This document shows positions 5,790 to 21,407 of a DNA stretch of 64,000 bases, one piece after another. The notes under the pieces were generated by a model that ran no database searches, was not told the origin of the DNA, and was given only the letters and a program-made list of their open reading frames with translations. The stretch lies in NCBI GenBank assembly GCA_964615975.1, contig CAZTTH010000008.1, forward strand, positions 13,814 through 77,813, read 5' to 3'. This stretch comes from an uncultured Lentisphaerales bacterium (lineage in GTDB: Bacteria; Verrucomicrobiota; Lentisphaeria; JABSQK01; JAJFLO01). The stretch's first letter is position 1; each line of letters opens with the position of its first letter. The position numbers and the translations under genes are program-made.

Positions 5790-7862
5790 TTAAGCTCGTA
5801 AGTCATCCAGGAATTCTGAGGCTGGTTCAATGCCTGTGACCAGTAAATGATCCCTTGCCCGTGTACAAGCGACATAAAGCAAGTGACGTTCAGTGTCGTA
5901 GACCTCTTGCAAATCGGCATCGTCACCGACTGTTTCAATACGTTCCTGTAAGGGGATAATCTCGTCATCACAGGATATCACGGCCACGGCGCGGAATTCA
6001 AGCCCCTTGGCCAGGTGCATGGTGCAGATCGATACATGACCACTGCTCGTCTCGACATGGTCATCGAGGATATTGAATGGCAAACCCGACTCCTTGACTG
6101 CATCTTGAGCTCGTTCCAGTTGCCCTGGTGAACGCACGAAGACGCCGAATTCATGGGGTAGGAGACCGGCTTTCGTGAGCTCGGCAATCCATGTACCAAC
6201 AGAACTTATTTCGTCATTTTCACTCTTGAACACGCGAATGTCGGGTAATGGACCATTGAAGATCGAAATTGTATCGCTCCGATCTTCTCGATTGCCGTCC
6301 ACATCAGTAACTTCCGGACCAAGCAGACGATCAGCTTGCTGGCGGATTTGATGGGATGTGCGATAATTGATTCGCAGCGTGCGGGAACGACCGCGGATAT
6401 CAACACCGAGTGATTTCCAGGAGAAGGGTTGTTGGAAAATACGCTGACCAAGATCACCGGCAAAGAATAAAGCGTTGGAGCGCTCACCACCAAGCACGGC
6501 AAGGAAGCGGAGTTGTGAAACACTGAGATCCTGTGCCTCGTCAACAACTACAAAATCGAAGGGTAGCTTTTTGCTTTCCACCAATGTGGACGACAAGGCA
6601 GTGAAAATCCCCGCATGAGTGGATAACTTCCGCTCTTTCAATCCACTGCTGACCTGCTCAAAGATAGACCAGAGTACCACTCGTCGCTTTTCGGGCAGCC
6701 GGGTTTTGCGGCCAAGGCGGGCTACATCGCGGTAAGACTCCCATGTTTCCAATTGCCACGCATCGACGACTTGTTCCCATTCGGTAACCAGGAAATGCAG
6801 ACTGAACTTGTGATCTCCCACCACTTTCGCCGCGACATTGAGCAATTCCCGCACGATATCACGAGTGGCCAGGTTCACCTTGCCACATTGTGATTTAAAG
6901 AGTCGGAGACCGATGGCATTCAGGGAGTAAACTTCAATGCGTTCGACAAGACGCGGTTCGTTGCCGACCAATCGTTTTAGCTTGGTACGAAGCGCATTTG
7001 CCAGCGTGTCGGAAAAGGTTGTGAGCAGGATGCGGGCATCGGGATAGGCGCGGGCCAGATACACTGCCCGATGCAACGCCACAATCGTCTTTCCGGTTCC
7101 AGCCGATCCTGAAACACGGGATGGTCCATTTTGGTCGCGTTCCACCCATTGACGCTGTTCGGGATGGAGAAAAACAGTCCACTTCTCCCAGGGGAAATCG
7201 AGAGCACATTGAAGCTCTTCGATATTGTTCATCACCCGGAAGCGGCGTTGCGCATCGGGGTGATCAAACGGACTTGCAATCGGCATGGCCGGTTGAATCA
7301 CTCGCGGTTTGCCACCGGTGGCAAGTTCCAGGAGCGCTTCAGCCGCTTCCCCGGGCAGACGTTCCGCTAACAATAACAGGCTGTCTTCATTAACCTGGCG
7401 CACATCATTCAACCATTCTGCCGGCACGCCATAGCCAAGCAGTTCTTCATCGGAATTGGCGGTAAACAGGGGTGGTTTCGGTAGCGCCGGCAATTCCTGT
7501 TGCACATACACTGGTACATAGACCTCCTTCACCGTCTCGCGAATTTCCACGAGCTGAGCCGCCCCCGTCTTGGGATGCGTTTCCAGTTTCCGGCGTTGCG
7601 CCCAATTATAGGCTTTATCGTGGTGATCGACATAACAGAGCATCAAACTGGTACCGGTTTTGTGAACGATGAGCCGAATATCACTGGTTGCTCGAATCGA
7701 CCAGAAGTTGGCATCTTTGGCGCCCTCAATACGATGGCATTGCATCCCGGGATTGAGGGGATTCATCTGCAGGTCAAATGCCGTTGTCTTGACCGCTTTC
7801 TGCTCATCGCCGGTCAGGCGTGCAAGGCTATCGGTGAAGGTGGCGGCAATGCGGAAGTTCAT
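5790..7862 (-). CDS. SF1 UvrD/Rep-like helicase with an N-terminal RelE/ParE-like domain
   Basis: Helicase motifs: GSAGTGKT (I), VVVDEAQDLS (II), FFAGDLGQRIF (III), INYRTS (IV), TMHLAKGLEFRAV (V) and LLYVACTRARDHL (VI). The GAGGA Shine-Dalgarno sits about 7 nt upstream of the ATG. The first ~95 aa (FWSIRATSDIRLIVHKTG..LMLCYVDHHDKAY) look toxin-fold-like. Confidence 0.85.
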   Translation of the reverse strand: MNFRIAATFTDSLARLTGDEQKAVKTTAFDLQMNPLNPGMQCHRIEGAKDANFWSIRATSDIRLIVHKTGTSLMLCYVDHHDKAYNWAQRRKLETHPKTGAAQLVEIRETVKEVYVPVYVQQELPALPKPPLFTANSDEELLGYGVPAEWLNDVRQVNEDSLLLLAERLPGEAAEALLELATGGKPRVIQPAMPIASPFDHPDAQRRFRVMNNIEELQCALDFPWEKWTVFLHPEQRQWVERDQNGPSRVSGSAGTGKTIVALHRAVYLARAYPDARILLTTFSDTLANALRTKLKRLVGNEPRLVERIEVYSLNAIGLRLFKSQCGKVNLATRDIVRELLNVAAKVVGDHKFSLHFLVTEWEQVVDAWQLETWESYRDVARLGRKTRLPEKRRVVLWSIFEQVSSGLKERKLSTHAGIFTALSSTLVESKKLPFDFVVVDEAQDLSVSQLRFLAVLGGERSNALFFAGDLGQRIFQQPFSWKSLGVDIRGRSRTLRINYRTSHQIRQQADRLLGPEVTDVDGNREDRSDTISIFNGPLPDIRVFKSENDEISSVGTWIAELTKAGLLPHEFGVFVRSPGQLERAQDAVKESGLPFNILDDHVETSSGHVSICTMHLAKGLEFRAVAVISCDDEIIPLQERIETVGDDADLQEVYDTERHLLYVACTRARDHLLVTGIEPASEFLDDLRA

Positions 7863-7932: not shown

Positions 7933-8361
7933 TCATTTAGCATAATGGCATTCCATAACAGTATCGGCGATCAGTTGTGCTATAGTCAGATTATCTTGAT
8001 GAGAAATCCCATGAATTCCGCTATGAGACGGATCATTGTCTTCAGGTTCATGAATGAACTGCAACTGACGCGAATCATTCGATTCATTTTTTACAAAATT
8101 CCTGGTGTTTCCAACATTCACCACTGCAAACATACCCGTTGATGCCACATTGAATTTTTTAGCAAAAATTCGTCTTACTTCTTCAATTTCTTGAACACGA
8201 GAAGTTTTCTTGAGATATTCCAGCCAATTCACGGACAGATAAGTTTCATCATCTCGAAGCATGAATGAGGCACCGGTTGGTAGTCCAGTGGAAGGTGAAA
8301 GACTCCGAGGTTTACAATATCTTGAAACGTGATCGGAATCCTGGATAATGTCATTTCTCAT
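7933..8361 (-). CDS. hypothetical protein (142 aa), last gene of a three-gene operon
   Basis: The ORF overlaps the upstream gene by 11 nt. I recognise no family. The conserved-looking C-terminal HEPEDNDPSHSGIHGI may be catalytic. Confidence 0.55.
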   Translation of the reverse strand: MRNDIIQDSDHVSRYCKPRSLSPSTGLPTGASFMLRDDETYLSVNWLEYLKKTSRVQEIEEVRRIFAKKFNVASTGMFAVVNVGNTRNFVKNESNDSRQLQFIHEPEDNDPSHSGIHGISHQDNLTIAQLIADTVMECHYAK

Positions 8362-9067
8362 TGATCGTCGTCCATCGTTCTGTATTGAAGGGCGTTATGA
8401 GTTGACGAAAATCTTTCATGCCACATTTTCCTGAATTCCTAATTATTCCGTCCTGAGACGGAGAAAATATCAAATAATTAAGGTTATAATCCGAAAGAAA
8501 CTCAATGGTCAGATTTCGGGATTTATCTTTGCGCCATTGACAGATAATTGTCCCATTAGGGGATGCCATAATGTCAGGATGACAAAGGTCTTTATTCTGG
8601 GATAAAAATCGCAAGCAAGCGCCGACAGATGTTGCACTTAATTTCGTTTCCTCTAGATCTTCGGCGAGAAGGTCATTCAATTCTGTAATGCGAGCCAGCA
8701 CTTCATCTTTCTTTAACAGTGTTCGGCTTGAAAGGCGAAAGTCTATTAATGTTGCTCGAACTTTGTCATATTCTGACCTTATATCTCCTAAAATAGCCAT
8801 GGAAGTATTTTCCGAGGATTCGATTTCAGCTATGATTGCTTTGTCCTCTGGGCAAACACTCAAATAGATCATGGGTGTAAAATAATTCCGCGGTTTGATA
8901 GATGAGAACGAGGTTTTGGGGTTGAGAGATGATTCCCACTGGGCAAGAATTGAATAATCCGTTTGTCTTCGAGATAACAACAATGATTGTACTTGATATT
9001 CATCTTGATCGAATAGTGCTTCGCGGGTTAAGTCAAAATCATCCTTGTATGCGACTGCGGCAGTCAT
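8351..9067 (-). CDS. hypothetical protein (238 aa), middle gene of a three-gene operon
   Basis: An ATGA start/stop overlap with the upstream gene (9064-9067) indicates translational coupling. No recognisable motif. Confidence 0.55.
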   Translation of the reverse strand: MTAAVAYKDDFDLTREALFDQDEYQVQSLLLSRRQTDYSILAQWESSLNPKTSFSSIKPRNYFTPMIYLSVCPEDKAIIAEIESSENTSMAILGDIRSEYDKVRATLIDFRLSSRTLLKKDEVLARITELNDLLAEDLEETKLSATSVGACLRFLSQNKDLCHPDIMASPNGTIICQWRKDKSRNLTIEFLSDYNLNYLIFSPSQDGIIRNSGKCGMKDFRQLITPFNTERWTTINEK

Positions 9068-9858
9068 TTATCCTTCCTCCCCCAGAATTTTTTTTGGATA
9101 TTAATATCAGTAAAATCGCAAAATCCATAAACAATCCATTCATGCGCCAGGTCAAACCACTCCTCCATACGCTTATAACTGACGTCTCCACCCAAACCTT
9201 TAGCTGATAATTCGAGAATGTAAATAGGACTACCGTCCGTTTGTCTTTGACTAAAGCTCAAGCTTACCGTCAGTCGTCCAAAATCTTCAGGTAATGTAAA
9301 GATACCTCTCCATGCGTTTGATTCTGGTCCCGGCAGGAATCGGTCTTCATTTCGCCAAATCAAATCGGGGGCGAAATTTCCAACTTCTGCCGGCGTTTGC
9401 CATATGTCACCTATAGGTATGTGGTTGATGTAAGACAGTTCGCATTTCTGAATGTTGGGCTTGGGTATTTCTTGTTCGGAGAGAAAGGTACAAAATTCCT
9501 TAAGTTGATTCCAAAATTCGTTAATGACATTGGAATATCGCGGATAGGTTTCGTCACCTGTGATCCGCCGCCAATTAAACACGAAACAATTTCTCTGAAT
9601 TTGGATCAGCGATGTTTGGGTTGAGTTCAATAACCAAACACGCGGCCATGGCAGATCGTTCTCTGGGTCTAATGGTAAAAGTGGTTGTGCATGTTCACAA
9701 TGGGGATATCGCTCCTGAATTCTATCCCAATAACGTCCAATATGAGGAAGTTTGAATCCCGCCAATGATTTAAAATAAACACCAGCCACCACCTCATTGA
9801 TAGGCGGAGTTTCAAAATCCGGTAATTGTGTTTGTATGTCTTTTTTGTTTTTCTTCAT
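9064..9858 (-). CDS. TIGR04255-like uncharacterised protein (264 aa), first gene of a three-gene operon
   Basis: The N-terminal PPINEVVAGVYF, the length and the overall pattern resemble the TIGR04255 family as I recall it. Assigned from memory, not from a search. Confidence 0.55.
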   Translation of the reverse strand: MKKNKKDIQTQLPDFETPPINEVVAGVYFKSLAGFKLPHIGRYWDRIQERYPHCEHAQPLLPLDPENDLPWPRVWLLNSTQTSLIQIQRNCFVFNWRRITGDETYPRYSNVINEFWNQLKEFCTFLSEQEIPKPNIQKCELSYINHIPIGDIWQTPAEVGNFAPDLIWRNEDRFLPGPESNAWRGIFTLPEDFGRLTVSLSFSQRQTDGSPIYILELSAKGLGGDVSYKRMEEWFDLAHEWIVYGFCDFTDINIQKKFWGRKDK

Positions 9859-9969
9859 TGATTTATCCTTATGTTTTTGGGTCTAACCAATTTCATATAT
9901 AACATTAACAAAATTAAGATAGACAATTCAATCCGTCTGAGGTCTGTATTTTACCCACACTGACCAAAA

Positions 9970-10125
9970 TCACCTGTCCTTTGCCCTGTCGAGTTTATAG
10001 AAGATCAGTGCCAATCTTGCCAGGTTAACCTGCAAATCAAATGCTGTCGTCTGAACTGCTTTCTGCTCATCGCCAGTCAGGCGTGCAAGGCTATCGGTGA
10101 AGGTGGCGGCGATACGGAATTCCAT
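9970..10125 (-). pseudogene. 5' fragment of a second, diverged helicase allele (N-terminal 33 codons, then unrelated sequence and a stop)
   Basis: nt 10030-10125 align without gaps to nt 7767-7862, with 84/96 identical by hand count. It translates to MEFRIAATFTDSLARLTGDEQKAVQTTAFDLQV, versus MNFRIAATFTDSLARLTGDEQKAVKTTAFDLQM in the helicase. Confidence 0.85.
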
Positions 10126-10242: not shown

Positions 10243-11898
10243 CTAAATAAGATGCCATTTCGGGTATTTTCGCGATCCTTCATTCCGGATTAAGTCCTCC
10301 CTTGCCATCGACTGAATCAGGTTAGTTACTTTGTTACGTTTCCGATCATCATCCAGGACATCAGATAATTTGCTGAATAAGAGCTTATCGATATCCTGGC
10401 GTGTGGCATGGCCATACTTCCGAATGAATTCCAGAATCATCTGCTTGTAATGTGCATCGTCGAAAGCGCGGTTTTTTATATACTGTGCTTTATCTCCAGT
10501 GGCCGAGGCGATATGCGCTGCCACGTATAGATTGGGATAACGGCCTTCAATAAGTTTATCATTTCGTAGCATATTCGCTTCATCTTTGGATACTGCTTGT
10601 CGTTTCTGAATTCGGTCTAATAAAATCACTTTGCTCAGCGGCAAATCTTTCTGATCCATAAGCATGACGGTGTAATTAGGGTCAATCACCTGGCCATGTA
10701 TGGTTACGATTACTTTACCCGGTGTCGATAGATTGAAATCGGGTAACGGATAAAATCGCTTGCGTTGCTCCTGGAACATCCGTCGAATGCCATATCCCAT
10801 GGTATCGATCATATTCACATTCACCATGGCGTCTGCGAGAAAACGATTACGATAGCGCTCTGGGGTCTTTTCCCGCAACGTATAATCCTCAAGCCCACCT
10901 TCGAAAAAATCTCCCGCACTCTCAAATACCAAACGATCAGGTCGCTCCGCGACAATTATCCGCGCTTGCTGGCGGTAATCCTGATGGGCAATCGCATTAT
11001 GCATTGCTTCCAGTACCACCCATTTTTCATACTTGGGGACTTCAAATGGAACCAGTTGACCGGGGACATCAAGCTTTTGCATGGTATTACGAATCCGGGC
11101 ATAACATTCACTGGTAGTCAGGAGAAATGGCGGACTGAAGTGTTCGTATGCCTGTTCCGTTCCTTCCAGTTTCCAGGTGATTTGCGCTACTGCCGGTTCC
11201 AGATGATAAGCCGCTTCTTCTCGCCCCAGCAACAGCAGACATGCACGGGTAATCGCGCCGTTCTTTGTCAATTTGGCTTTATCCAGCAATGTCGTATTCG
11301 ACCATGAATCAATCTCTCCGGCAAAGTACTTGTTTCGATTTTTATCACGAAAGTTCCGCCGAGCCGCCACGATTGCCTCCGAATTCAAGTCGTCAATAGT
11401 GGCTTGTGAACAGATTTCTGCTGACCAATCATCAAGCACTGCTTGTGACCGAATCTGCTCCAACTCATGAAGACTTAAGGCGACCAGCGACTCCCCATCG
11501 CGACCATACCAATGCCCTTTGAAGGAGACCGGCAACCCGGGCGGCGCCGCGGGAACCTGAAACATAATGACCCGGCCAGCGGCATGATACGCAATGTGAA
11601 TATCGATAAAACTCATGCGATTGGTTTGATTGGCAATTTCATGTTTAAGGCTATTCAAATAGTCTGCTTTGTCGCGATAACGACTCCCACAAATGCTCCG
11701 ATCATCATTGGCGATGCCGAACACCAGCCAGCCACAGGGTTGATGCTTGAGGTTTGCTTCATTCGCCAACGCTGAAAAATATTGCCCCAGTTTATCGAAG
11801 GAGAAATCATTTTTCGCTTCTTTGAACTCCACCCATTCCGTTTCATGGGGAAGCTGTCGTAGTTCATCAAGTTTATCAAGTAATTGCTGATTCGTCAT
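10243..11898 (-). CDS. AlbA_2/Schlafen-like (divergent AAA) DNA/RNA-binding protein with a RecG-C-terminal-like ATPase/wHTH region
   Basis: ETEWVEFKEAKNDFSFDKLGQYFSALANE is the hallmark N-terminus of the AlbA_2 family. The start overlaps the mod stop by 4 nt. Confidence 0.75.
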   Translation of the reverse strand: MTNQQLLDKLDELRQLPHETEWVEFKEAKNDFSFDKLGQYFSALANEANLKHQPCGWLVFGIANDDRSICGSRYRDKADYLNSLKHEIANQTNRMSFIDIHIAYHAAGRVIMFQVPAAPPGLPVSFKGHWYGRDGESLVALSLHELEQIRSQAVLDDWSAEICSQATIDDLNSEAIVAARRNFRDKNRNKYFAGEIDSWSNTTLLDKAKLTKNGAITRACLLLLGREEAAYHLEPAVAQITWKLEGTEQAYEHFSPPFLLTTSECYARIRNTMQKLDVPGQLVPFEVPKYEKWVVLEAMHNAIAHQDYRQQARIIVAERPDRLVFESAGDFFEGGLEDYTLREKTPERYRNRFLADAMVNVNMIDTMGYGIRRMFQEQRKRFYPLPDFNLSTPGKVIVTIHGQVIDPNYTVMLMDQKDLPLSKVILLDRIQKRQAVSKDEANMLRNDKLIEGRYPNLYVAAHIASATGDKAQYIKNRAFDDAHYKQMILEFIRKYGHATRQDIDKLLFSKLSDVLDDDRKRNKVTNLIQSMAREDLIRNEGSRKYPKWHLI

Positions 11899-14800
11899 GG
11901 GTTCACCCGGAATACCTTCATTACCTCGTCTCCAAGATGGTTGATTACTTTGATGGCGATGCGGCCGGACTTCGGCTTCTCGAATGGGCGGGAGGTGTCA
12001 CTGTTCAGAGTGGCCCAGGCGTCGGCGTTGATCTCGGCTTTGAGAGTGGTCTTGAGGGCGCTGTAGGGATCGTTGGCGCCAAGGAAATATGCATGGCGGA
12101 CAAAGAAGCTTTCTTCATTGTAATCGGTGTCGATGAACCAGCAGGCAATGCCATCGGTATTGCAGCTTTCTACTTCACCGGTTTGGGGTTTGAAGACATC
12201 CACTCCATTTACAGTGACCTGGAAATAGTGGCGAGTGGTCAGGGGAGAGTGGATAGCGATTTGATCAATGCGTTTAGCATTTTGTTGATCTTGGCACAAT
12301 TGTTCAATAAGTTTTCGCAGTCCTTCCTGGAAAGAAGTTCCAGCCTTTCGGACAAGATCAGAAAGGTTTCCAACTCCGCCAGCGATCCCCGCGCAATGCC
12401 AAGCGATTGTAGAAACTCCCCCGTGCTCCTGCGGGCCTGCCCTTCGGCGATGTTTGCCGGGACGGAGGTCACTGCCCGTCGCATTTGTGATGTAATCCCA
12501 TATCTCTCGGCGGCAGGAAAGCTGCGCGTAATCGCGTAGGTCTGCACCGCCAAGTCGATTGATTTCTGCCAGACTATTAACTCCCGATATGAGCTTATAG
12601 ATTTCATAAGGTGCTATTCTCCTTTCTGAACTATCCACTAACCACTCTTCACTTGCCACTTCAATATCAGGTTCCCCGAATATCACAAACAAGTTGCCTT
12701 TGCCGGTGTTCTTGAGATCTTCAGCCATGTGGAGGTCGGCGTTCATGCGGGCTTTGAGCACTGGGATGCGGCCCAGCTTCTTGAATTCGGTGGTGTGCGC
12801 TTCGTAGTTAAAAGCGCAGACGATCAAGACATCAAACCCGGCATCGCCGGCTTCGCGGGCGGCGGCGACGAGATCGGCGCGCTGGACGGTGCCGAACTCG
12901 GGGCCGATGAAGATTCCAGCACGGATTTCCGTGCCGGAATCAGTGGATAGTGAGGAGTGGTTAATGGCATATTTTTCTTGTTGATCACCCTTCACTAACC
13001 ACTCACCACTTGCTTCAAACCGCCCTTCGGCGCAGACCAATTCGCCCGGCCAGGGAACCAACGAGGTGAAAGTGATCCGATCCTCCTTGTGCGCCTGCTG
13101 CACCCCTGCGGTCTTGAGGTTTTCCAGAACCATCTGGGGGAATGACTGCTTTCCATATTCGACACCGCCTTCCAACATGGTGTCGATCAATTCGTCGTCC
13201 TCGTCGACCCCGAGCACACGATGAGGTGAAAGACTCTCCACGGTGAAGGGACCGGCGACGCGGACTGTCTTCTTGTCCTCATAGGGTTTGTCGTAGAGAT
13301 ATTCGACATCAGCCTTGGCGGAAATCGACGCATCAATTTCCTTTTGGCGGGCAATTCGTTTGTGCCACCAGTCGGAATGCAGCTTCAGAATGTGGGACAG
13401 ACATTCTTGTCTGTCTTTAGGGGGGAGTTTGGCGGTGGAAGAAGCAGACAGGAATGTCTGCTCCACACTGGCAGATTCGCGCGGAATTTCCCATTCTTCC
13501 CATTTCATATTAAGCGCGGTATTGAGCTCTGCTCGAAGAAATTCCAGCTCTGGTTGGAATTTCTCCCAGATAACATCGATCTCGGCGTTGTTGGCGATGG
13601 ACTTGAGCGTGATGTGTGGCACACGTTCATAGACGAAGCCGTGGCGGATGTTCCCCTGCACCGGTTGCGAACTTGGGGCGGTGCGAGTGACTTCGGCTTC
13701 CTTGAGCTGACCTTCAATGGAATCGACTAGTAGGTAAAAGGGATACCGTGCGCCCATGATGCGAGCACGGGCCAATGCCAGCGCCACGCGTGAGGTGTCG
13801 ATCGTGATCCAACGGCGCCCCCATTGCTCGGCGACGGTGGCGGTGGTACCAGAACCGCAGGTCGGGTCAAGTACGAGGTCACCGGGATCGGTGGCCAAGA
13901 GAAGGCATCGTTTTATTGCTTCTGTAGCAGTCTGAACGACAAAAATCTTTGGATCTGCACGGCTTTGAATGCCCCCGATATCATCCCAGACGTTTGAAAG
14001 TGTATGAACGGGAAAATCTTCAATGTAGCGAACGTAATTTAATATCTGCTTGCTCGGAGAAATACGATTTGCCAATTCGAGTCTGGCCATGCCATTGGGT
14101 GTTGTCTTCCAACTGCCTTGGTGTTCGCAGTTTCGTAGTGTCACTAACACTACTGGGTTTGCTTCTGACGTTGTCTTGTCGAGACGGAAAATTCGTGACG
14201 CGGGCGGGAAGGCATCAGGGAATTTTTCACTCGCTTGTTTTAGTGTAATTCTTGTTCCATCTGGTAGTTCGACTCCGTTGTATTTTGTGCCGCCATGTTC
14301 TCCTGGTCTCTTCTCGGCGTACAGATGCCGTGCTTTCGCATGGGTCTTATGCTTTGCGAACCAGAGAATGAAATCGCATTTGTTATTCACGAAGTCTTGA
14401 ACAAGACCTCCTGTCTTTACGAATGTGATTTGGCTGACACAATTCTCTTCTCCGAAGACCTCATCCATCACTGCCCGGACACGGTGAACATTTTCATCGC
14501 CGATCTGGACGAAGATGGAGCCGGAATCTGTTAACAAGTCACGGGCCACTGTCAACCGGTCCCGCAGGTAGGTAAGGTAGCTATGGATGCCTTCGCGCCA
14601 GGTATCGCGAAAGGCTTTAACTTGTTCGGGTTCACGTGTAATATGATCAACCTTGCCGTCCTTCACATCACGGCTGGTGGTGGACCACTGGAAATTGCTA
14701 TTGAACTTGATGCCATAAGGCGGATCGATATAGATGCACTGCACCTTGCCGCGCAACCCCTCGCGCTCGGCCAGGCTGGCCATGACCTGGAGGGAGTCGC

Positions 14801-15230
14801 CGAGGATCATGCGGTTGGACCAATTCTGATCGTGTTGATAGAACTCAGTCTTGTCCACGCCCTGAGGAATGCCATTAAAATCCGCGAATAAGTCTGGCTG
14901 CCACGATTCGGTGGAGTGATTAGTGGATAGTGAAGAGTGGCGCAGTAGATCGTCAATCAATACCTTGGGGTGAATTTTCTCCTGAATGTATAACGGCGGG
15001 GCATGGACAACGAGATCGCTCCAGTCCTGTTCATCCTTGCCGCGCCAAACGAGTTGGGGATCGAGATCGGTGTTGCGGGGATAACGCACCTGCTTGGGGT
15101 TCTGCTGCTCCTTCTCCAGCACCGACTGGTATTCGGCGGTGGGAATGTTCTTGCGCGTCGCGTCGTCGTGCTTGAGTGTTTCGACTGTCTTGGTTTTATT
15201 GTTTGCATTGGCCATGTTATTAAATCCCAA
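11895..15230 (-). CDS. mod: type III-like N6-adenine DNA methyltransferase (Mod), 1111 codons including several in-frame insertions
   Basis: IYIDPPYGIKFNSNFQ (motif IV, DPPY), LVLDPTCGSGTTATVAEQWGRRWITID (motif I), and the conserved C-terminus CWFIDTDYNEESFFVRHAYFLG...IAIKVINHLGDEVMKVF. Confidence 0.85.
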   Translation of the reverse strand: MGFNNMANANNKTKTVETLKHDDATRKNIPTAEYQSVLEKEQQNPKQVRYPRNTDLDPQLVWRGKDEQDWSDLVVHAPPLYIQEKIHPKVLIDDLLRHSSLSTNHSTESWQPDLFADFNGIPQGVDKTEFYQHDQNWSNRMILGDSLQVMASLAEREGLRGKVQCIYIDPPYGIKFNSNFQWSTTSRDVKDGKVDHITREPEQVKAFRDTWREGIHSYLTYLRDRLTVARDLLTDSGSIFVQIGDENVHRVRAVMDEVFGEENCVSQITFVKTGGLVQDFVNNKCDFILWFAKHKTHAKARHLYAEKRPGEHGGTKYNGVELPDGTRITLKQASEKFPDAFPPASRIFRLDKTTSEANPVVLVTLRNCEHQGSWKTTPNGMARLELANRISPSKQILNYVRYIEDFPVHTLSNVWDDIGGIQSRADPKIFVVQTATEAIKRCLLLATDPGDLVLDPTCGSGTTATVAEQWGRRWITIDTSRVALALARARIMGARYPFYLLVDSIEGQLKEAEVTRTAPSSQPVQGNIRHGFVYERVPHITLKSIANNAEIDVIWEKFQPELEFLRAELNTALNMKWEEWEIPRESASVEQTFLSASSTAKLPPKDRQECLSHILKLHSDWWHKRIARQKEIDASISAKADVEYLYDKPYEDKKTVRVAGPFTVESLSPHRVLGVDEDDELIDTMLEGGVEYGKQSFPQMVLENLKTAGVQQAHKEDRITFTSLVPWPGELVCAEGRFEASGEWLVKGDQQEKYAINHSSLSTDSGTEIRAGIFIGPEFGTVQRADLVAAAREAGDAGFDVLIVCAFNYEAHTTEFKKLGRIPVLKARMNADLHMAEDLKNTGKGNLFVIFGEPDIEVASEEWLVDSSERRIAPYEIYKLISGVNSLAEINRLGGADLRDYAQLSCRREIWDYITNATGSDLRPGKHRRRAGPQEHGGVSTIAWHCAGIAGGVGNLSDLVRKAGTSFQEGLRKLIEQLCQDQQNAKRIDQIAIHSPLTTRHYFQVTVNGVDVFKPQTGEVESCNTDGIACWFIDTDYNEESFFVRHAYFLGANDPYSALKTTLKAEINADAWATLNSDTSRPFEKPKSGRIAIKVINHLGDEVMKVFRVNP
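12227..12660 (-). mobile_element. IVS-like cassette inside mod: a four-helix-bundle gene bounded by 30-nt imperfect inverted repeats
   Basis: The arms at 12227-12256 (agtggcgagtggtcaggggagagtggatag) and 12631-12660 (ctatccactaaccactcttcacttgccact) are reverse-complementary at 23/30 positions by hand count. They enclose the ORF 12239-12607. Confidence 0.55.
12239..12607 (-). CDS. four-helix-bundle protein (23S rRNA intervening-sequence protein / Avd-like family), nested in mod in a different frame
   Basis: YRELIVWQKSIDLAVQTYAITRSFPAAERYGITSQMRRAVTSVPANIAEGQAR...GSLAELETFLILS is the classic family signature. It has its own AAGGAG Shine-Dalgarno about 11 nt upstream of the ATG. Confidence 0.8.
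   Translation of the reverse strand: MKSISSYRELIVWQKSIDLAVQTYAITRSFPAAERYGITSQMRRAVTSVPANIAEGQARRSTGEFLQSLGIARGSLAELETFLILSERLELLSRKDCENLLNNCAKINKMLNALIKSLSTLP
12942..13013. repeat. 'empty' hairpin made of the same AGTGG/CCACT arm family, in frame within mod
   Basis: agtggatagtgaggagtggttaatgg, a ~19-nt loop, then ttcactaaccactcaccacttgc. The right arm is near-identical to 12636-12657. Confidence 0.6.
13396..13461. repeat. pair of short perfect palindromic hairpins inside mod coding sequence
   Basis: GACAGACA-ttct-TGTCTGTC (13396-13415) and GCAGACA-ggaa-TGTCTGC (13444-13461). Same hairpin family as 15410-15429. Confidence 0.7.
14911..14940. repeat. solo arm of the AGTGG repeat family within the 5' part of mod
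   Basis: gtggagtgattagtggatagtgaagagtgg. The stretch agtggatagtgaagagtgg matches 12942-12960 at 18/19. Confidence 0.55.
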
Positions 15231-15331
15231 AATCAGGTTGTTGTCTACATTTATTCGGCCCGCTAATCACGCAAAACACACGAATGTTCAGTTCTCAGTT
15301 AAGAATGAAGGCTGATTTGCTTGGATTGAAT

Positions 15332-15365
15332 ATTCGTGTCGTTCGTCTGATTCGTGGTTAAATTT
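15332..15365 (+). repeat. three 9-nt direct repeats (ATTCGTGTC GTTCGTCTG ATTCGTGGT) followed by TAAATTT
   Basis: Read directly. It is related to 26662-26718, with the same ATYCGTGT start and GATYCGTGGTTAAATTT end. Confidence 0.6.
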
Positions 15366-15376
15366 GAACGGTGGTG

Positions 15377-15436
15377 AACGGAGGGCGGGTTTTCCAACCC
15401 GCCAAACAAGGCGGACAGGAATGTCCGCCCTCCGTT
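15377..15436. repeat. REP-like double-hairpin element with an alternative 12-bp outer stem
   Basis: GGCGGGTT-ttcc-AACCCGCC (15384-15403) and GGCGGACA-ggaa-TGTCCGCC (15410-15429). The outer stem AACGGAGGGCGG (15377-15388) pairs perfectly with CCGCCCTCCGTT (15425-15436). Confidence 0.7.
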
Positions 15437-15473
15437 ATCCTCAAAATCGATACCTGAGTTGTTACAATATATT

Positions 15474-15707
15474 TTATATTTTGCCATCGCGTTTCAATTC
15501 GATAATCATGTCCTCAAACGAAACTAATGGTTCATCCGCGCGCATATCGAAGGCGGCTAAATCCTCTGTATCCTCCGCCAGCGACAATATTACCGCTTCA
15601 TTAACGAGGTCGGACATCGATCTTGATGTATCAATGGACTTTTGCTGTAATGCTTTATGAATATCCGGTTTTAGGTAAATAGTGGAACGTTTTGATAATA
15701 CTGTCAT
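15474..15707 (-). CDS. ribbon-helix-helix (CopG/ParD-like) antitoxin, now orphaned
   Basis: STIYLKPDIHKALQQKSIDTSRSMSDLVNEAVILSLAEDTEDLAAFDMRADEP is typical of RHH antitoxins that pair with RelE/ParE toxins. Confidence 0.65.
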   Translation of the reverse strand: MTVLSKRSTIYLKPDIHKALQQKSIDTSRSMSDLVNEAVILSLAEDTEDLAAFDMRADEPLVSFEDMIIELKRDGKI

Positions 15708-15777: not shown

Positions 15778-16350
15778 TCAAACTGCCAATCGGTCAGTGA
15801 CTACATCATCGATCATCTTGTTGAACTCGGCTTCAACCTTTTTAGTAAAATCCGCCTCGATCTGATAAACCATGCGTTCGCTCGCCCGGATTTCGCAGAC
15901 CTCTTCAAGCAGTTCCTCGAAGTATCGCCGGTCGAAACGAGTGCCGTGTTTAAAGCGGTCGGAATCGATAGCGAAACCTTTGAGGATGTAGTCCTTTAAC
16001 CGATCGGTAGCCCAGGTACGAAATTGGGTCGCTCGCACGCTTTTGACGCGATACCCAACAGCTATGATCGCTTCGAGGCTGTAAAGCTTCGTACGATACT
16101 GCTTGCCATCAGCGGCAGTTACCGAGGATTCCTCGGTAACTGCTGATTCGATTAGTTCTTGATCGGCGAAAATATTCTTTAAATGCAAGGAGATATTGTC
16201 GGTGGAACACTCATAAAGTTCGGCTATGAGTTTCTGGGTGAGCCAAACATTTTCGTTCTCGAAGCGAACTTCAACGCGAGCCCGCCCATCTTCACTTGCG
16301 AAGATGGTGATATTGTCGATGCGTATAGGTTGCGAATTTTTAGACATCAT
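15778..16350 (-). CDS. RhuM-family protein, truncated and fused to a Res-type C-terminal tail
   Basis: The RhuM core is LYSLEAIIAVGYRVKSVRATQFRTWATDRLKDYILKGFAIDSDRF...EIRASERMVYQ. The last ~25 aa (IEADFTKKVEAEFNKMI) are homologous to the Res C-terminus (IEADFSKKVKFEFDRML). Confidence 0.75.
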   Translation of the reverse strand: MMSKNSQPIRIDNITIFASEDGRARVEVRFENENVWLTQKLIAELYECSTDNISLHLKNIFADQELIESAVTEESSVTAADGKQYRTKLYSLEAIIAVGYRVKSVRATQFRTWATDRLKDYILKGFAIDSDRFKHGTRFDRRYFEELLEEVCEIRASERMVYQIEADFTKKVEAEFNKMIDDVVTDRLAV

Positions 16351-17435
16351 TAACTTCCTTCCTGCATGGATTCTCTGGTCAAAATAGCATTCAAGGCGGT
16401 GTTAATGTAGTAATTAGTCCGCCCTATTTTTTGTTTTTTAAGGAAGCCGCCGCCGGTCAACGCATCGAGATATTTGGTGGCGGTGAGGCGCGACACCTTC
16501 AGATCACGTTCGACGAATTCGATCTTGGTATAGGGGTGGGTAAACAGGTTATTGATCAGATCCTGACTGTAAAACTTGTACTCCGCGCGAATACGGTGCT
16601 TCGCATCCATCAACGCCGCATTAATGGCATGGATGGTTTCGATGGCATCACCGGCGGTTGATTCAATGGCGGTAAGCAGGTAAAGCACCCACTCTTCCCA
16701 TGCATCGTTTTCGCGAACACTCTGAAGCAGTCGATAATAATCCGGTTTGGTGCGGACGATGTGGCGGCTGAGATATAGCACCGGGATATCGAGCAGACCT
16801 TCCTTCACCAAGTAAAGCACATTAACGATGCGGCCGGTGCGGCCATTGCCATCATAGAACGGGTGGATACTTTCAAACTGGTGATGGATCAACGCCATTT
16901 TAATGAGCGGGTCAGCGGCAAATAAATCACGATCATTGATGAAACGCTCAAGATCGCGCATGAGCGCGATAATGGTATCTGGATCTTGCGGCGGCATATA
17001 GATCGCCTGACCAGAGCCATCTTTCAACACAGTCCCTGGCAGTTTGCGGAAACCGGCGTTGTTTTGCTCCAGCTCTACCTGAATCTGAATGATATGGTTG
17101 ATGGTAAGCAGACCACTTTGTTGCACTAGATCGAATCCAACCCGTAAAGCCTGGCGATACCGTAGTACCTCCTTGGCGGCGCCATGGTGCAAGTTCTCGG
17201 GAAAAAGGTCATCTTTATATAATTCGTCATGAGTGGTCACGATGTTTTCTATGGCCGAACTATCCTTGGCCTCCTGTATTCCCAGAGTGTTGATGAGTAT
17301 CCCCTGGTTAGGAATGGAGGCGGCGACTCCCTTGAGTTCAGCTAGTTTACGACTTGTTAAAGCCAATTTTTTAAGGATAACGGGAGTATCGAATCTTATC
17401 GACGGCAAACGATCTAATGGCAGAATGGTGGTCAT
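16350..17435 (-). CDS. Fic-family protein (AMPylase/adenylyltransferase type) with a C-terminal wHTH
   Basis: Fic motif HPFYDGNGRTGR. The stop overlaps the rhuM start. Confidence 0.9.
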   Translation of the reverse strand: MTTILPLDRLPSIRFDTPVILKKLALTSRKLAELKGVAASIPNQGILINTLGIQEAKDSSAIENIVTTHDELYKDDLFPENLHHGAAKEVLRYRQALRVGFDLVQQSGLLTINHIIQIQVELEQNNAGFRKLPGTVLKDGSGQAIYMPPQDPDTIIALMRDLERFINDRDLFAADPLIKMALIHHQFESIHPFYDGNGRTGRIVNVLYLVKEGLLDIPVLYLSRHIVRTKPDYYRLLQSVRENDAWEEWVLYLLTAIESTAGDAIETIHAINAALMDAKHRIRAEYKFYSQDLINNLFTHPYTKIEFVERDLKVSRLTATKYLDALTGGGFLKKQKIGRTNYYINTALNAILTRESMQEGS

Positions 17436-17458
17436 GTTATCCCCTTAACCCCTTGTCG

Positions 17459-17529
17459 ATATGTATATAAAAATAGCGTTTTCTATACATATGGCGCACA
17501 ATGTGTATAGGATATGGCAAGATTGTATA
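17459..17529. promoter_or_regulatory. putative operator array upstream of fic: four TGTATA/TATACA hexamers at 20-22-bp spacing
   Basis: A perfect inverted repeat, ATATGTATA (17459-17467) and TATACATAT (17484-17492), is separated by a 16-nt spacer. Further TGTATA hexamers lie at 17504-17509 and 17524-17529. Confidence 0.4.
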
Positions 17530-17537
17530 CGGATTAT

Positions 17538-20500
17538 TCATAATGATGCCGGCCGCGGGTGTATTATCATGCTTAACATCCGATCAAATTCAAATTTAAC
17601 CTTCTTGGAAAAATCTGCCTCAATCTGATAAACATCATTGAACTCGGCGAATGCCCAGCGGCCAAACGTGCCCAGGTTGTTCACACCGGGTACCCAGTAG
17701 GTTTCGATGGCGGACTTCTTATCCTTGGCATCCTCGCGGCGGTAGCCTTTGATCTCAACAATCAGATGGAGGAGATCGTCGGGCCCGTGGCCGTCATCCA
17801 CGCGCACGATAAAGTCCGGCAGATACTTGCGGATTTCAGAACCATGGCGATAGGGCACTTCGAGGCCGAGGTTGTGATTTTTGACGTAGGCATGAACTTT
17901 AGGGTGCGACTCGGCGACCCGGCAGAACTCGGCTTCCCAATCGCTGTCGAGGATAACCCAGTTGATATGGCAACTCTTGGAACTGGTTTCCCAGCGGTCA
18001 CGGCGCGAGGTGTTAAAGCGAACATGGGCCGTGGAGCCCGTGGGATTATAAGGGTCGAGCAGGGCTTTGATGGGACGTTCTCCGACGAAGGCGCGGGTAA
18101 TACCGGCAGTAATGCGTTCGCAAGCTATATCAGCGAGCATTTTGTATTTTAACTGCGCGGGGTAAGTTCTACCCTTGCAAATCAAGCAAGTGTCCAGCCA
18201 ATGCTTGGCAATCCGTTTCAATTGTCCGAAAAGATTAAAATGGGCAGACTGCCCCGGGTCACGCCAATGATTCAGAACGAGATGGGAAGTCAATTCAAAA
18301 AGAATTTGTGATGGACGCACCTCTCTAGTATGATCGAGAGTCAGGTCGACAGTTTGTCCAATTATTCCAGACTGACGAGTCGTTGTTGCACCAACCAACT
18401 CCGGGGTAAGCTCAAGAATCGAGTCTTGGTCAAATTGGGCAATTAGACGATCATCGGGCAATTCAACACGATAGCCTGCCACACGGGGGAAAATTATCTC
18501 CAGATGATTTCTCTCTGGGCTAATGGCTTTCACTCGGACGGTTTGCGGGGGTGGTTGTGGGGGAGAGATTACGGGCTGGGCTGTAAAGTTAAAGGGAATG
18601 CCAATAATATCAGCATATTCTACATTGAACAATCCTTTATCCGATCCTTCCTCATTTAGCCAATAGGACCATCGCCTCAGAGCTCGGCCGATGACCTGTT
18701 CACATAGTAGCTGAGTACCAAAAGCCCGAACTCCAAGTACATGAGTGACAGTGTTGGCATCCCAGCCCTCGGTAAGCATGGAAACTGAAACAACACAACG
18801 AATGTCACTACCAAGTGTCCCAGGTTTGCCCACAGTGTTCATAACTTCCCGCAATAGGGTTGTATCGTCGAAATCTTTTCCTTCCCTCAATTGCTCCGCC
18901 AAGGGGCCGCCTCTTTCCATAACTTGACTCTTGAACTGAGTAATTTCAGGGGCTGCAACTGCTCGGAAGTTATCATCGAAACCTTCCCCCGATTCCAATT
19001 GAGCGCTGTCGATGAGCAATGTGTATGGGCGAGTTAATGGGTTGCCGTGCTCGTCATGATTTCGGAATAGTTCGAGACGTCCACCCACAGGCTTGAAGCT
19101 TCCATCCTCCTGCAGTTGATCAAAGCCAGAAATGAAATCGTAGATTAGCTTCGAAACGGCCGTGTTCTGACAAACAATGATAAAGCATGGCGGAACCGGG
19201 ATCCCTCTTTCTCGCCAACACTGAAAAGTTTTGGAATAGTGGCCATAGAGTGCTTCGAGTGCGGTTTGAAGTAAGGGGGGCAGGCTCAAAGGGTCAAGTC
19301 TAGACTGACCGCGCTTTTTCTTTGGCATTTTCGAGCGCACGTTCTCCCACAGATTTCTGAATAACGGAACGTCAGCTCCGGGTATGTTGTCCGAGACTGG
19401 AACCCGAGGCAATTTCACGATTCCGCACTCAATTGCGTCCATGAGTGAAAAATCGCTCATCGTCCAGTGGAACATCGTACCTTCTCGATATCCAGAGCCA
19501 CGGAGAAAGAAAGGTGTTGCAGAAAGATCGATTACACGAAGAAGACCGATTTTGCGATTCACTTTCTCAAGTCCCGAAATCCAAAGTCGTGCCGCCTTGT
19601 TGTTCTCCGCAGCTTCTTCCCTGGCTTCTCTCAGTGCGTTGCCAGAAAGAGGATTACCTTCTGAATCAGTGAACTGACTGTCGTCTGCAGGTTTCTCACG
19701 ATAACAGTGATGTGCCTCGTCATTTATAACAAGGATATTTTTCATGCCCATGAGTTCGGGCATGACACGTTGAATCATCTGGCCTTCGGTCTCAAGTGTT
19801 AGCGGATCATCACCGGTTCGGCCCTTGAGGAGTTGACGGTTGCCTTTTGAAAGATTGGTGCGCTCCCGGAGTTTGAAGGCATGGTAGTTGGTGATGACAA
19901 TCTTGGCCTTCTTGAGATCGTCGAGCATATCATGCGGCACGAGTTCGCGGCTAGCATAATAGCTGTCAGGATCGTGGGGTTGGAGGACGCGCAGACGATC
20001 CTTGATGGTCAGACCGGGGGCGACGATGAGGAACCCACGGCTGAAATATTTGCTGCCAGGGCGGCGGACAGCATTGATGGTTTGCCAGGCGATAAGCATG
20101 GCCATAACGGTGGTCTTGCCAGCGCCGGTGGCCAGTTTCAGGGCGAAGCGCATGAGTTCAGGATTGGCATCCTGATTAGCGCTTGCCAGGTAATCGAGCA
20201 ATTGTTTACTGCTCTTATAAAAGGGAGCGACTTCGGTCAGCCAGATGGCGGTTTCGACCGCTTCAATCTGACAGAAGAACGGGCGGAAGTCGCCGAATTT
20301 ATGGTGACGCCAGTGCTGCAGCAGGCGGGTTGTCTCGGGGCTAACCTGCCATTGGCCGGGATTGGACAACGCCCGCCAGGCATTCACATGGCGGCGAACT
20401 TCATTGATGTTGGACGTAGGATCGTATTGCTGATCCTTGGTCGAAAGCCCCTGGCCTTCGTCGAATACGAATTCTTCCTGAGCGGCGGATTGCTTCCGCT

Positions 20501-20654
20501 TCTTCGGTTTGGGAATAGGAGTGATAAACTCAGCCCGGCGACGACTCAGCATGATCCGCTGTGTCGGTTGTCCAGATTTATCCAATTCCCAGTGTCGACT
20601 TGGACACTCATAAGGCGAGTTGAGGATGGGGTGGTCGAAGAAGGGATTGGACAT
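17538..20654 (-). CDS. res: type III-like restriction endonuclease / SF2 helicase subunit (Res)
   Basis: KLATGAGKTTVMAMLIAW (Walker A / motif I), LVINDEAHHCY (DEAH, motif II), and MLTEGWDANTVTHVLGVRAFGTQLLCEQVIGRALRR (motifs V-VI). Confidence 0.9.
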   Translation of the reverse strand: MSNPFFDHPILNSPYECPSRHWELDKSGQPTQRIMLSRRRAEFITPIPKPKKRKQSAAQEEFVFDEGQGLSTKDQQYDPTSNINEVRRHVNAWRALSNPGQWQVSPETTRLLQHWRHHKFGDFRPFFCQIEAVETAIWLTEVAPFYKSSKQLLDYLASANQDANPELMRFALKLATGAGKTTVMAMLIAWQTINAVRRPGSKYFSRGFLIVAPGLTIKDRLRVLQPHDPDSYYASRELVPHDMLDDLKKAKIVITNYHAFKLRERTNLSKGNRQLLKGRTGDDPLTLETEGQMIQRVMPELMGMKNILVINDEAHHCYREKPADDSQFTDSEGNPLSGNALREAREEAAENNKAARLWISGLEKVNRKIGLLRVIDLSATPFFLRGSGYREGTMFHWTMSDFSLMDAIECGIVKLPRVPVSDNIPGADVPLFRNLWENVRSKMPKKKRGQSRLDPLSLPPLLQTALEALYGHYSKTFQCWRERGIPVPPCFIIVCQNTAVSKLIYDFISGFDQLQEDGSFKPVGGRLELFRNHDEHGNPLTRPYTLLIDSAQLESGEGFDDNFRAVAAPEITQFKSQVMERGGPLAEQLREGKDFDDTTLLREVMNTVGKPGTLGSDIRCVVSVSMLTEGWDANTVTHVLGVRAFGTQLLCEQVIGRALRRWSYWLNEEGSDKGLFNVEYADIIGIPFNFTAQPVISPPQPPPQTVRVKAISPERNHLEIIFPRVAGYRVELPDDRLIAQFDQDSILELTPELVGATTTRQSGIIGQTVDLTLDHTREVRPSQILFELTSHLVLNHWRDPGQSAHFNLFGQLKRIAKHWLDTCLICKGRTYPAQLKYKMLADIACERITAGITRAFVGERPIKALLDPYNPTGSTAHVRFNTSRRDRWETSSKSCHINWVILDSDWEAEFCRVAESHPKVHAYVKNHNLGLEVPYRHGSEIRKYLPDFIVRVDDGHGPDDLLHLIVEIKGYRREDAKDKKSAIETYWVPGVNNLGTFGRWAFAEFNDVYQIEADFSKKVKFEFDRMLSMIIHPRPASL

Positions 20655-20950: not shown

Positions 20951-21407
20951 AATTCATCGGCGGGTGTAAGCCGGATTCTGTCCTCTGGTGGTAACGCCGT
21001 GTTGATCATGACGGTTAAGCCATGAATCAACGCGGCTCCCAGAGTAACGACCATTTATCTGCGCGGTCTACCCGGAACTTATATCTTGCGAAACGGCACG
21101 GGCCGCGCCTTGTTCCCTATTTGACCTTGCTCCAGGATGGGTTTACCCTGCGATTCGGCTTGCGCCGGAATCCGGTGGGCTCTTACCCCACCATTTCACC
21201 CTTACCCCATCTTCACCGCCGGCAGGATGGTTCGCATCCCGCCGGCGGTGAAGATGAGGCGGTATATTTTCTGTGGCACTTTCCTGACCGAGGCGTCTGG
21301 TCCTCGATATCCGGGATTGCTCCCGGATTCCTCGCCCTGTGGAGTCCGGACTTTCCTCCATTTCAGGTGATGATCCTGAAACAGCGACCGTTCCCCGCCG
21401 ATGAAAT
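20951..21407 (-). ncRNA. rnpB: RNase P RNA, bacterial type A
   Basis: The reverse complement contains GGAGGAAAGTCCGGACTCCACAGGGC, GTGCCACAGAAAA, GGGTAAGGGTGAAA, GGTAAGAGCCCACC, GGTAAACCCATCCTGGAGCAAGGTCAAATAGGG and ACAGAATCCGGCTTAC. P1 is formed by TTCATCGGCGGG / CCCGCCGATGAA. The ends are approximate to within a few nt. Confidence 0.88.

Follow-up and report, generated by a model that had tools for sequence, protein, structure and literature searches.

A truncated rhuM gene fused to an orphan res 3' end in a BPTD_3080-type restriction-modification operon of an uncultured Lentisphaerales bacterium

We analyzed a stretch of 64,000 nucleotides (nt) from an uncultured Lentisphaerales bacterium (contig CAZTTH010000008.1), here called the window, in which genes for a restriction endonuclease (res), a methyltransferase (mod) and a UvrD-type helicase form a BPTD_3080-type operon with variable cargo between the core genes. 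Our subject is an open reading frame (ORF) of 190 amino acids (aa) located between res and mod, which the initial annotation had taken for a truncated RhuM-family gene bearing a duplicated Res C-terminal tail. We found that rhuM breaks off after codon 163 and continues in frame into the last 27 codons of what appears to be a res allele other than that of the intact res gene upstream. The ORF is an illegitimate-recombination scar, not a functional new gene type. On balance, the pathway that fits it best is a one-ended, homology-facilitated insertion (homology-facilitated illegitimate recombination, HFIR).

The fused rhuM'::res-tail ORF and its junction

The elements that define the fusion are as follows; related loci and homologous proteins are referred to by L and P numbers, respectively.

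15778-16350 (-), the fused rhuM'::res-tail ORF, 190 aa, with the C-terminal end ..EIRASERMVYQIEADFTKKVEAEFNKMIDDVVTDRLAV
15862-16350 (-), the RhuM-derived part, codons 1-163, N-terminal half only
15860-15870 (-), the junction, GTTTATCAGAT, that is V161-Y162-Q163 plus 2 nt, with the crossover within it
15778-15861 (-), tail B, the orphan res 3' end: the last 27 codons (IEADFTKKVEAEFNKMIDDVVTDRLAV) and the natural stop, in frame with rhuM'
17574-17633 (-), tail A, the copy of the res 3' repeat that ends the intact res, VYQIEADFSKKVKFEFDRML
17538-20654 (-), res, 1038 aa, a BPTD_3080-family Type III-like restriction endonuclease ending with tail A

By profile score the ORF belongs to the RhuM family, matching Pfam RhuM (PF13310) with 120.9 bits against a cut-off of 33.7 (E 7.3e-35) and PADLOC PDC-S05 with an E value of 5e-63. 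The Pfam match spans residues 70-164 and occupies positions 1-97 of the 252 in the profile; the full-length architecture of ~332 aa, with a C-terminal helical half carrying the invariant D161..H188..T195-A196-x-E198 (P0020 numbering), is absent. A database search with the fused protein returned 7760 relatives, the best of which, self aside, aligned over at most ~85-94% of the query, and the RhuM part is 85% identical to P0002. In an alignment of 14 sequences, all homologues reaching this site go on ERMVYQKITDIYATAADYSP.., and the window protein diverges after Q163. The canonical continuation YQK(I/V)(T)D follows SER.. in 104 of the 120 best RhuM matches and, with a one-residue variant, in 3 more, while the remainder stop or frameshift before the motif. 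The truncation after ..YQ that had been proposed is therefore borne out, since the homologues continue YQK(I/V)xD to the ~332 aa typical of an intact protein. A Res-like ending (IEADF..) was found in none of 119 RhuM homologues, leaving the window protein alone with one; the objection that full-length RhuM proteins might naturally end in IEADF..KKV..EF thus falls away. Judged from its sequence, the 190-aa ORF is a truncated RhuM derivative rather than an intact member of the family.

Within the retained 163 residues, a change is seen at 1 of 51 strongly conserved RhuM positions, and 28 of 65 invariant columns lie past the break. The break falls within a predicted helix, residues 155-163 of P0020 (AlphaFold model, 64-sequence alignment, mean pLDDT 76), which marks the start of the C-terminal helical half. 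When the PDB was searched with the RhuM model by Foldseek, the matches were weak and of winged-helix type (TM <0.2) and yielded no functional assignment for the lost C-terminal half. RhuM' retains an N-terminal part that is probably a winged helix. Because the whole C-terminal helical half and its 28 invariant residues have been lost, RhuM' is most likely inactive as a RhuM effector.

A selected functional fusion, for example a DNA-binding regulator or a subunit recruited via the Res tail, would account for the undecayed N-terminal 163 aa and the consensus-like tail, for an ORF that stays open to the natural res stop and has a start overlapping the stop of fic, the gene before it, and for the short PDC-S05 profiles in PADLOC (~174 aa) that match residues 10-168. 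We nevertheless give this idea very little credence, because the protein is unique among 120 close homologues and forms a singleton cluster, the break lies inside the predicted helix of P0020 rather than in a domain linker, half of the invariant residues are gone, and many close RhuM genes are split or truncated, decay being common in the family.

Regarding the condition of close RhuM genes in general, we observed that they are often split or truncated. P0008 and P0009 (L081-L087), the closest RhuM genes on long contigs, each consist of two ORFs that both match PF13310 and lie in unrelated neighbourhoods. Pseudogenisation would seem to be frequent among RhuM genes.

The C-terminal ends of Res were compared across 120 proteins from the database and 79 genome loci. 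They read ..GRWAFAEFTEVYQIEADFKAKVESEFNKMIE.., beyond which a short, variable segment leads to the stop, 22-32 residues past YQ. A Res-tail profile built from the 79 loci, with the window left out, was searched against a six-frame translation of the window and matched 15802-15870 (-) with an E value of 3.2e-14 and 49.6 bits, compared with 32.1 bits for the window's own Res tail; no other match in the translation was better than E ~4. Tail B carries the family-specific ending ..VYQIEADFxxKVExEFNKMI.., and its stop comes 27 residues past YQ, a typical length. The ResIII helicase and endonuclease domains are missing upstream of it, where RhuM sequence stands instead.

The DNA leads to the same identification. 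With the two copies in register, 15822-15870 and 17585-17633 share 37 of 49 nt, and 15811-15870 and 17574-17633 share 43 of 60, whereas the flanks of the repeat agree at a random level (13/60 in the 60 nt upstream, 16/60 in the 60 nt downstream). The count of about 36/49 that had been made by hand was right once the register was fixed, although the ranges given for it, 15820-15868 and 17587-17635, were 4 nt out of register and yield 11 of 49 identities as written. In more than 20 unrelated loci, too, the res tails match tail B over ~30 nt (88-94% identity), invariably at the homologous position; sequence downstream of 15809 matched nothing in the comparison with related loci. The similarity of the two tails thus survives proper alignment, profile scoring and in-register DNA comparison, and the fic-rhuM' pair is bracketed, as proposed, by two direct copies of the res 3' end, at 17574-17633 and at 15781-15870 (shared V-Y-Q codons included). 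By these comparisons tail B is an orphan fragment of a Res C-terminus. Nothing was found in favour of chance similarity or of a natural alternative RhuM C-terminus. The profile E value, the 0 of 119 homologues and the in-register DNA matches leave that idea a negligible probability.

At the DNA level tails A and B are only 72% identical, and the orphan lies closer to the Res family consensus than does the tail of the intact gene, as the two profile scores indicate. The pair therefore points to two different res alleles and not to a recent duplication in place.

V-Y-Q marks the point where homology to RhuM gives way to homology to Res. RhuM relatives read ..TAYCARAARATCACC (TAYCARAAR) at this point and res relatives GTNTAYCARATY, with exactly GTTTATCAGATC in two loci. 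Each family conserves V-Y-Q independently of the other, and in the same codon phase, so the join lies within GTTTATCAGA (15861-15870), is automatically in frame and involves up to 10 nt of microhomology. The microhomology had initially been drawn as V-Y-Q-I, of which V-Y-Q is indeed common to both families; the I belongs to Res only. Short microhomology of this kind at an illegitimate junction is a feature of HFIR products, and we regard an illegitimate, microhomology-mediated join as very probable.

An assembly chimera of two strain variants might also give rise to a junction of this sort, and RhuM', Fic and Res are indeed found together on a single 105-kb contig and nowhere else in the protein collection searched. 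Misassembly is very unlikely, however, because no exact match at the join exceeds 11 nt: the longest between the two tails is 11 nt, and that between a full rhuM and a res tail at most ~10 nt, far below assembler k-mers. Moreover, gene order and orientation on both sides match the family architecture, and comparable scars are present in independent assemblies.

Pathways to the fused ORF

The weighing of pathways draws on 4 further features of the operon.

16350-17435 (-), fic, SoFic-type, 361 aa, its stop overlapping the rhuM' start (TAATG)
17436-17537 (-), the res-fic spacer, with three TATACAT/ATGTATA half-sites
9952-10125 (-), the helicase 5' stub, a mirror-image scar of ~58 codons, broken by an in-frame stop at codon 52
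5796-7862 (-), the UvrD-type helicase, third core gene, full length at 689 aa, with Pfam domains UvrD-helicase and UvrD_C

In the one-ended insertion that we favour, a segment comprising a res 3' part, the spacer, fic and the 5' half of rhuM would have entered a resident res-(RHH)-mod locus, RHH denoting a ribbon-helix-helix gene. Homologous pairing within res would have anchored the incoming segment on one side, and its other, non-homologous end would have been attached to the tail of the resident res through the V-Y-Q microhomology. The res 3' end brought in would have become tail A, the end of the working res, and resident tail B would have been displaced 1.76 kb downstream, to be read in frame behind rhuM'; rhuM codon 163 would in this manner have been fused to the end of a res allele other than the one upstream. 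We infer the direction of this event, which of the tails was resident, and transfer rather than deletion. The low decay of RhuM' (1 of 51 positions) and the consensus-like tail fit a fairly recent event.

The cargo on the res side recurs elsewhere in similar arrangement. The Fic protein contains the Pfam domains Fic_N, Fic and SoFic-like_C and matches PADLOC SoFic (PDLC03963) end to end (E 8e-113); its NCBIfam SoFic score of 342 bits is below the equivalog cut-off of 550. A fic gene lies between res and mod in L010, L021, L038, L065, L088, L092 and L139, and in most res-fic-mod loci mod starts within a few nt of the fic stop. The half-sites of the spacer are kept in 5 loci of different lineages, namely the window, L038 (10907-11010), L088 (1444-1548), L021 and L010, and the spacer is likely to be the operator and promoter region of fic. 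Between the res 3' end and the fic stop, spacer included, L038 and the window are colinear and share 75% DNA identity; the res 3' end, spacer and fic form one linked block. A scan of 15.15-17.7 kb for promoters and terminators found sites no commoner than in shuffled sequence. The other cargo gene, rhuM, is likewise recurrent in BPTD_3080-type operons (L017, L080, L090 and L139).

A second scar, which mirrors that at res, lies at the helicase end of the operon, as had been proposed. When six full-length helicases were aligned to the window by tblastn, two alignments resulted, one of 689 residues at 5796-7862 and one of residues 1-56/58 at 9952-10125. Stub and full copy agree at 88% over the first 90 nt, after which identity drops. 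Between stub and full gene lie three cargo genes (7933-9858, ~40% GC), one of which matches TIGR04255; no family was found for the other two.

Duplicated parts of core genes were also found in 10 of 88 other loci. The res gene is affected at its 3' end in L016 and at its 5' end in L052, mod at its 3' end in L022 and L057 and at its 5' end in L033, L047 and L090, and the helicase at its 5' end in L027 and L038; in L017 and L090 a helicase stub is followed by rhuM. In the window itself, a displaced terminal fragment and a full copy with cargo between them are seen both for tails A and B and for the helicase, and these related loci show that such orphan termini recur. The end-points of the fragments vary by locus, helicase stubs having 38-58 codons and res fragments 27 and ~56-65 codons. 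No integrase or recombinase domain was found among the window ORFs at 5.8-20.7 kb. Since end-points differ between loci and a recombinase is lacking, the process is not site-specific; the recombinase gene and fixed boundary of an integron-like or site-specific cassette are both absent.

The only other extra res tail encountered is in L016, where an orphan res 3' fragment at 7403-7579 lies ~230 nt upstream of an intact res; tblastn aligns the final ~56 codons, by its reading frame the fragment may extend to ~65, and the tail profile matches with an E value of 1.5e-11. At L090 (1152-3253) the order is a fic-like 3' end, a mod 5' stub (residues 2-100 and 238-274), fic and a full mod; with its fic/mod border duplicated, this locus shows a scar of the same type at the opposite side of the cargo slot.

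A deletion within one genome might have produced the scar instead. Two res systems in tandem, or rhuM followed by a second res, would have undergone a deletion at the V-Y-Q microhomology that removed the 3' half of rhuM and most of the second res. Product and microhomology junction would be identical; adjacent res copies do occur, as the L016 fragment directly upstream of a full res attests, internal core-gene deletions are present in L165, and rhuM is a recurrent cargo gene in the 4 loci already named. Two full systems in tandem were, however, seen in none of 160 loci, and deletion alone leaves unexplained both the mirror helicase stub and the cargo-flanking end-fragments of other loci. We consider this pathway possible but rather unlikely. 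One-ended insertion, in comparison, explains the helicase stub and the end-fragments elsewhere as well.

A further possibility is a Campbell-type single crossover, in which a circle carrying a res-tail segment, fic and rhuM' would have integrated in the res tail and duplicated that segment. In an E. coli HFIR assay, circles mostly integrated by single crossover and thereby duplicated the homologous anchor (PMC3240628), and direct repeats on either side of the insert are to be expected. A repeat of only ~60-90 nt that is 72% identical is nonetheless a poor substrate for homologous crossover, and the circle would still require the same illegitimate rhuM/res join, making this a variant of the insertion that we favour; as a separate account we find it improbable.

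Several results weigh against one-ended insertion. No second res tail was found between res and mod in other loci. A degenerate DNA search of metagenome contigs for a res allele ending EFNKMIDDVV gave 0 matches and no parental configuration, and RhuM', Fic and Res are singletons in a collection of 15 billion proteins. All relatives are 65-83% identical in DNA, and segment-wise identity resolves no mosaic breakpoint in res. A fic gene adjoining rhuM was found in 0 of the 160 loci, and in a plasmid search with fic-rhuM' DNA the matches covered at most 55% of the query, the twelve best listed lying over fic only. Finally, the undecayed N-terminal half and tail could also be explained by selection on the fused ORF.

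Other contexts of the two cargo genes were similarly devoid of a donor-like fic-rhuM pair. Among 80 metagenome loci of close Fic relatives, ~70 held a solitary fic, a few were of the res-fic-mod type, and none had fic next to rhuM, while the closest RhuM homologues P0004, P0008 and P0009 lie in unrelated neighbourhoods, two of them as split genes. Repeated remodelling of the operon through one-ended homology, as initially suggested, is consistent with the duplicated core-gene ends in other loci, although it remains an inference, as no parental sequence was found and deletion gives the same product.

The host operon and its other cargo

The remaining features of the operon are mod and two elements that lie between tail B and mod.

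11895-15230 (-), mod, a Type III methyltransferase (PADLOC MTase_III, 1355 bits; Pfam N6_N4_Mtase)
15474-15707 (-), an RHH, RelB-like antitoxin-type ORF of 77 aa, directly downstream of tail B
15377-15436 (-), a hairpin of 60 nt with a perfect stem, between the RHH ORF and mod

The Res protein matches NCBIfam NF046055 with 1319 bits (cut-off 800) over positions 1-969 of the 970 in the profile, contains the Pfam domains ResIII and RE_endonuc and is 70-75% identical in aa sequence to those of 80 genome loci. In these loci, which come from many phyla, the gene order is res, variable spacer, mod, variable spacer, helicase. Among 61 loci the gap between res and mod is at most 100 nt in 17, 0.1-1 kb in 18 and more than 1 kb in 26, compared with 2.3 kb in the window; loci in which res abuts mod, and which therefore lack a fic-rhuM insert, are thus at hand, as the initial annotation had asked, and such empty sites, like the simpler res-fic-mod loci, speak in favour of one-ended insertion. 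The window helicase is 64-80% identical in aa sequence to helicases that follow mod in L006, L009, L012, L035, L039 and L050. From its start context, compared across loci, mod likely begins with the ATG at 15215.

The RHH ORF has weak matches to Pfam RH3 (E 0.008) and to an NCBIfam RelB-like family (E 0.006), sits in an AT-rich block of 40% GC, and had no homologue by tblastn in 160 loci. No toxin partner accompanies it. An overlapping ORF at 15299-15487 (-) starts MAKYKI.., which resembles a RelE/ParE start, and was without a family match in Pfam and NCBIfam; it may be a truncated RelE/ParE-type toxin and hence a third truncation. The hairpin has a minimum free energy of -46.3 kcal/mol (z-score -5.05), is unique in the window and had no Rfam match in a scan of 5-22 kb; it is possibly a terminator or a relic. 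We also considered whether the 13 nt before the mod ATG hold a relic of a fic 3' end, which would have meant that rhuM' through RHH was inserted into a res-fic-mod ancestor. This idea was rejected, since the context ATAA(N)C-ATGGCC is common at mod starts whatever lies upstream.

Other observations concern the core genes and their borders. Directly upstream of res, the defence operon abuts rnpB, the gene for RNase P RNA (RF00010, 220.6 bits), at 20951-21403 (-). A complete gene of the 23S_rRNA_IVP family (PF05635, E 8e-39) lies at 12239-12607 (-), in the +1 frame within the mod ORF, and the same overlap is found at L017 14950-15303, L042 12943-13308 and L074 6207-6560. Both frames are stop-free in all 4 loci, the mod-frame translation being rich in Gly, Ser and Arg, and the overlapping segment (~140 codons) is absent from most related mod genes; either overprinting or an insertion that preserved the frame may account for it. 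Between mod and the helicase stub, at 10243-11898 (-), lies a gene for a 551-aa protein with AlbA_2 (Schlafen-like) and HATPase_c_4 domains, distant relatives of which (25-34% identity) occupy the res-mod slot in L001, L014, L049, L069, L075 and L080. Some Res proteins have an extra C-terminal domain of ~130 aa (..LRMELRSE..WW..W..W..) after the usual tail (L048 10778-11248, L063 10778-11293, P0134, P0136 and P0199), which is another mode of remodelling the res 3' end.

Significance and comparison with known systems

The scar is a pseudogene-like remnant and leaves views of restriction-modification (R-M), Fic and RhuM function unaltered; its value is that of a dated footprint. It shows at nucleotide resolution that R-M cargo is exchanged by very-short-homology joins beside conserved core-gene ends. 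Together with the helicase stub and the fragments in ~11% of related loci, it suggests that defence genes have a general, recombinase-free route between the operons of distant phyla, and it provides a modest hint that conserved core-gene ends serve as handles for cargo exchange in this operon family. More tentatively still, BPTD_3080-type operons might be integrase-free cassette platforms, in which conserved core-gene ends act as one-sided anchors for swapping defence cargo between distant phyla. If so, the anchors would be the res 3' tail, the mod 5' and 3' ends and the first 90 nt of the helicase; the cargo swapped would include SoFic, RhuM, Schlafen-like and toxin-antitoxin genes; and orphan ends would record past exchanges, the rhuM'::res-tail ORF and the helicase stub being two records in one operon. 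Under one-ended insertion, the empty site would have consisted of a res gene ending ..KKVEAEFNKMIDDVVTDRLAV* and, after it, the RHH gene and mod. For annotation, the 190-aa 'RhuM family protein' is to be read as a chimera, and other PADLOC-type PDC-S05 matches may be truncated remnants.

The model of HFIR comes from work cited in PMC5361080 (de Vries & Wackernagel 2002; Prudhomme et al. 2002; Meier & Wackernagel 2003). As in that model, a foreign segment lies beside a stretch homologous to a resident gene, its other end is joined at short microhomology (here at most 10 nt), and the insertion alters the resident sequence near the anchor. In contrast to it, our case is read back from the product, and it displays a short duplication of the end of the anchor gene, whereas deletion is described as typical for HFIR. 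In the E. coli assay mentioned above, duplications beside the homologous segment were the main outcome, but the authors credit them to single crossovers with circular plasmids and not to HFIR (PMC3240628).

The same logic has been proposed for the orphan 3' ends of Rhs/T6SS loci (Kirchberger et al. 2017, PMC5361080). There, as here, a conserved gene gains a new 3' end together with cargo, the old end is pushed downstream as an orphan, and the pattern recurs across related loci; the proposed mechanism is likewise the same. Unlike the orphans of Rhs, contact-dependent inhibition (CDI) and T6SS loci, tail B is a 27-codon, non-catalytic tail of a restriction enzyme and not a toxin tip with an immunity gene, the gene downstream of it being the weakly matching RHH ORF; the resemblance is thus one of mechanism only. 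Furthermore, there is here a single orphan rather than an array, and it continues the reading frame of a truncated cargo gene to which it is unrelated.

Toxin-type cargo genes, such as those for Fic/Doc, RhuM and PrrC/RloC, have been described as embedded in R-M operons, with RhuM proposed as a toxin domain that fills the same slot as Doc/Fic (Anantharaman et al. 2013, PMC3710099). The window conforms to this description in having fic and rhuM between R-M subunit genes, with RhuM in a Doc/Fic-type slot, but its host operon is a BPTD_3080-type res-mod with a UvrD helicase, and its rhuM is truncated and chimeric. Likewise, the window fic resembles single-gene SoFic defence in matching PDLC03963 end to end, while differing from it in scoring below the NCBIfam cut-off and in being embedded in an R-M operon rather than standing alone; fic itself lies outside the scar. 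Taken together, R-M cargo genes, HFIR and orphan gene ends are all known already, and the rhuM'::res-tail ORF is a clean new example of them in a different host system.

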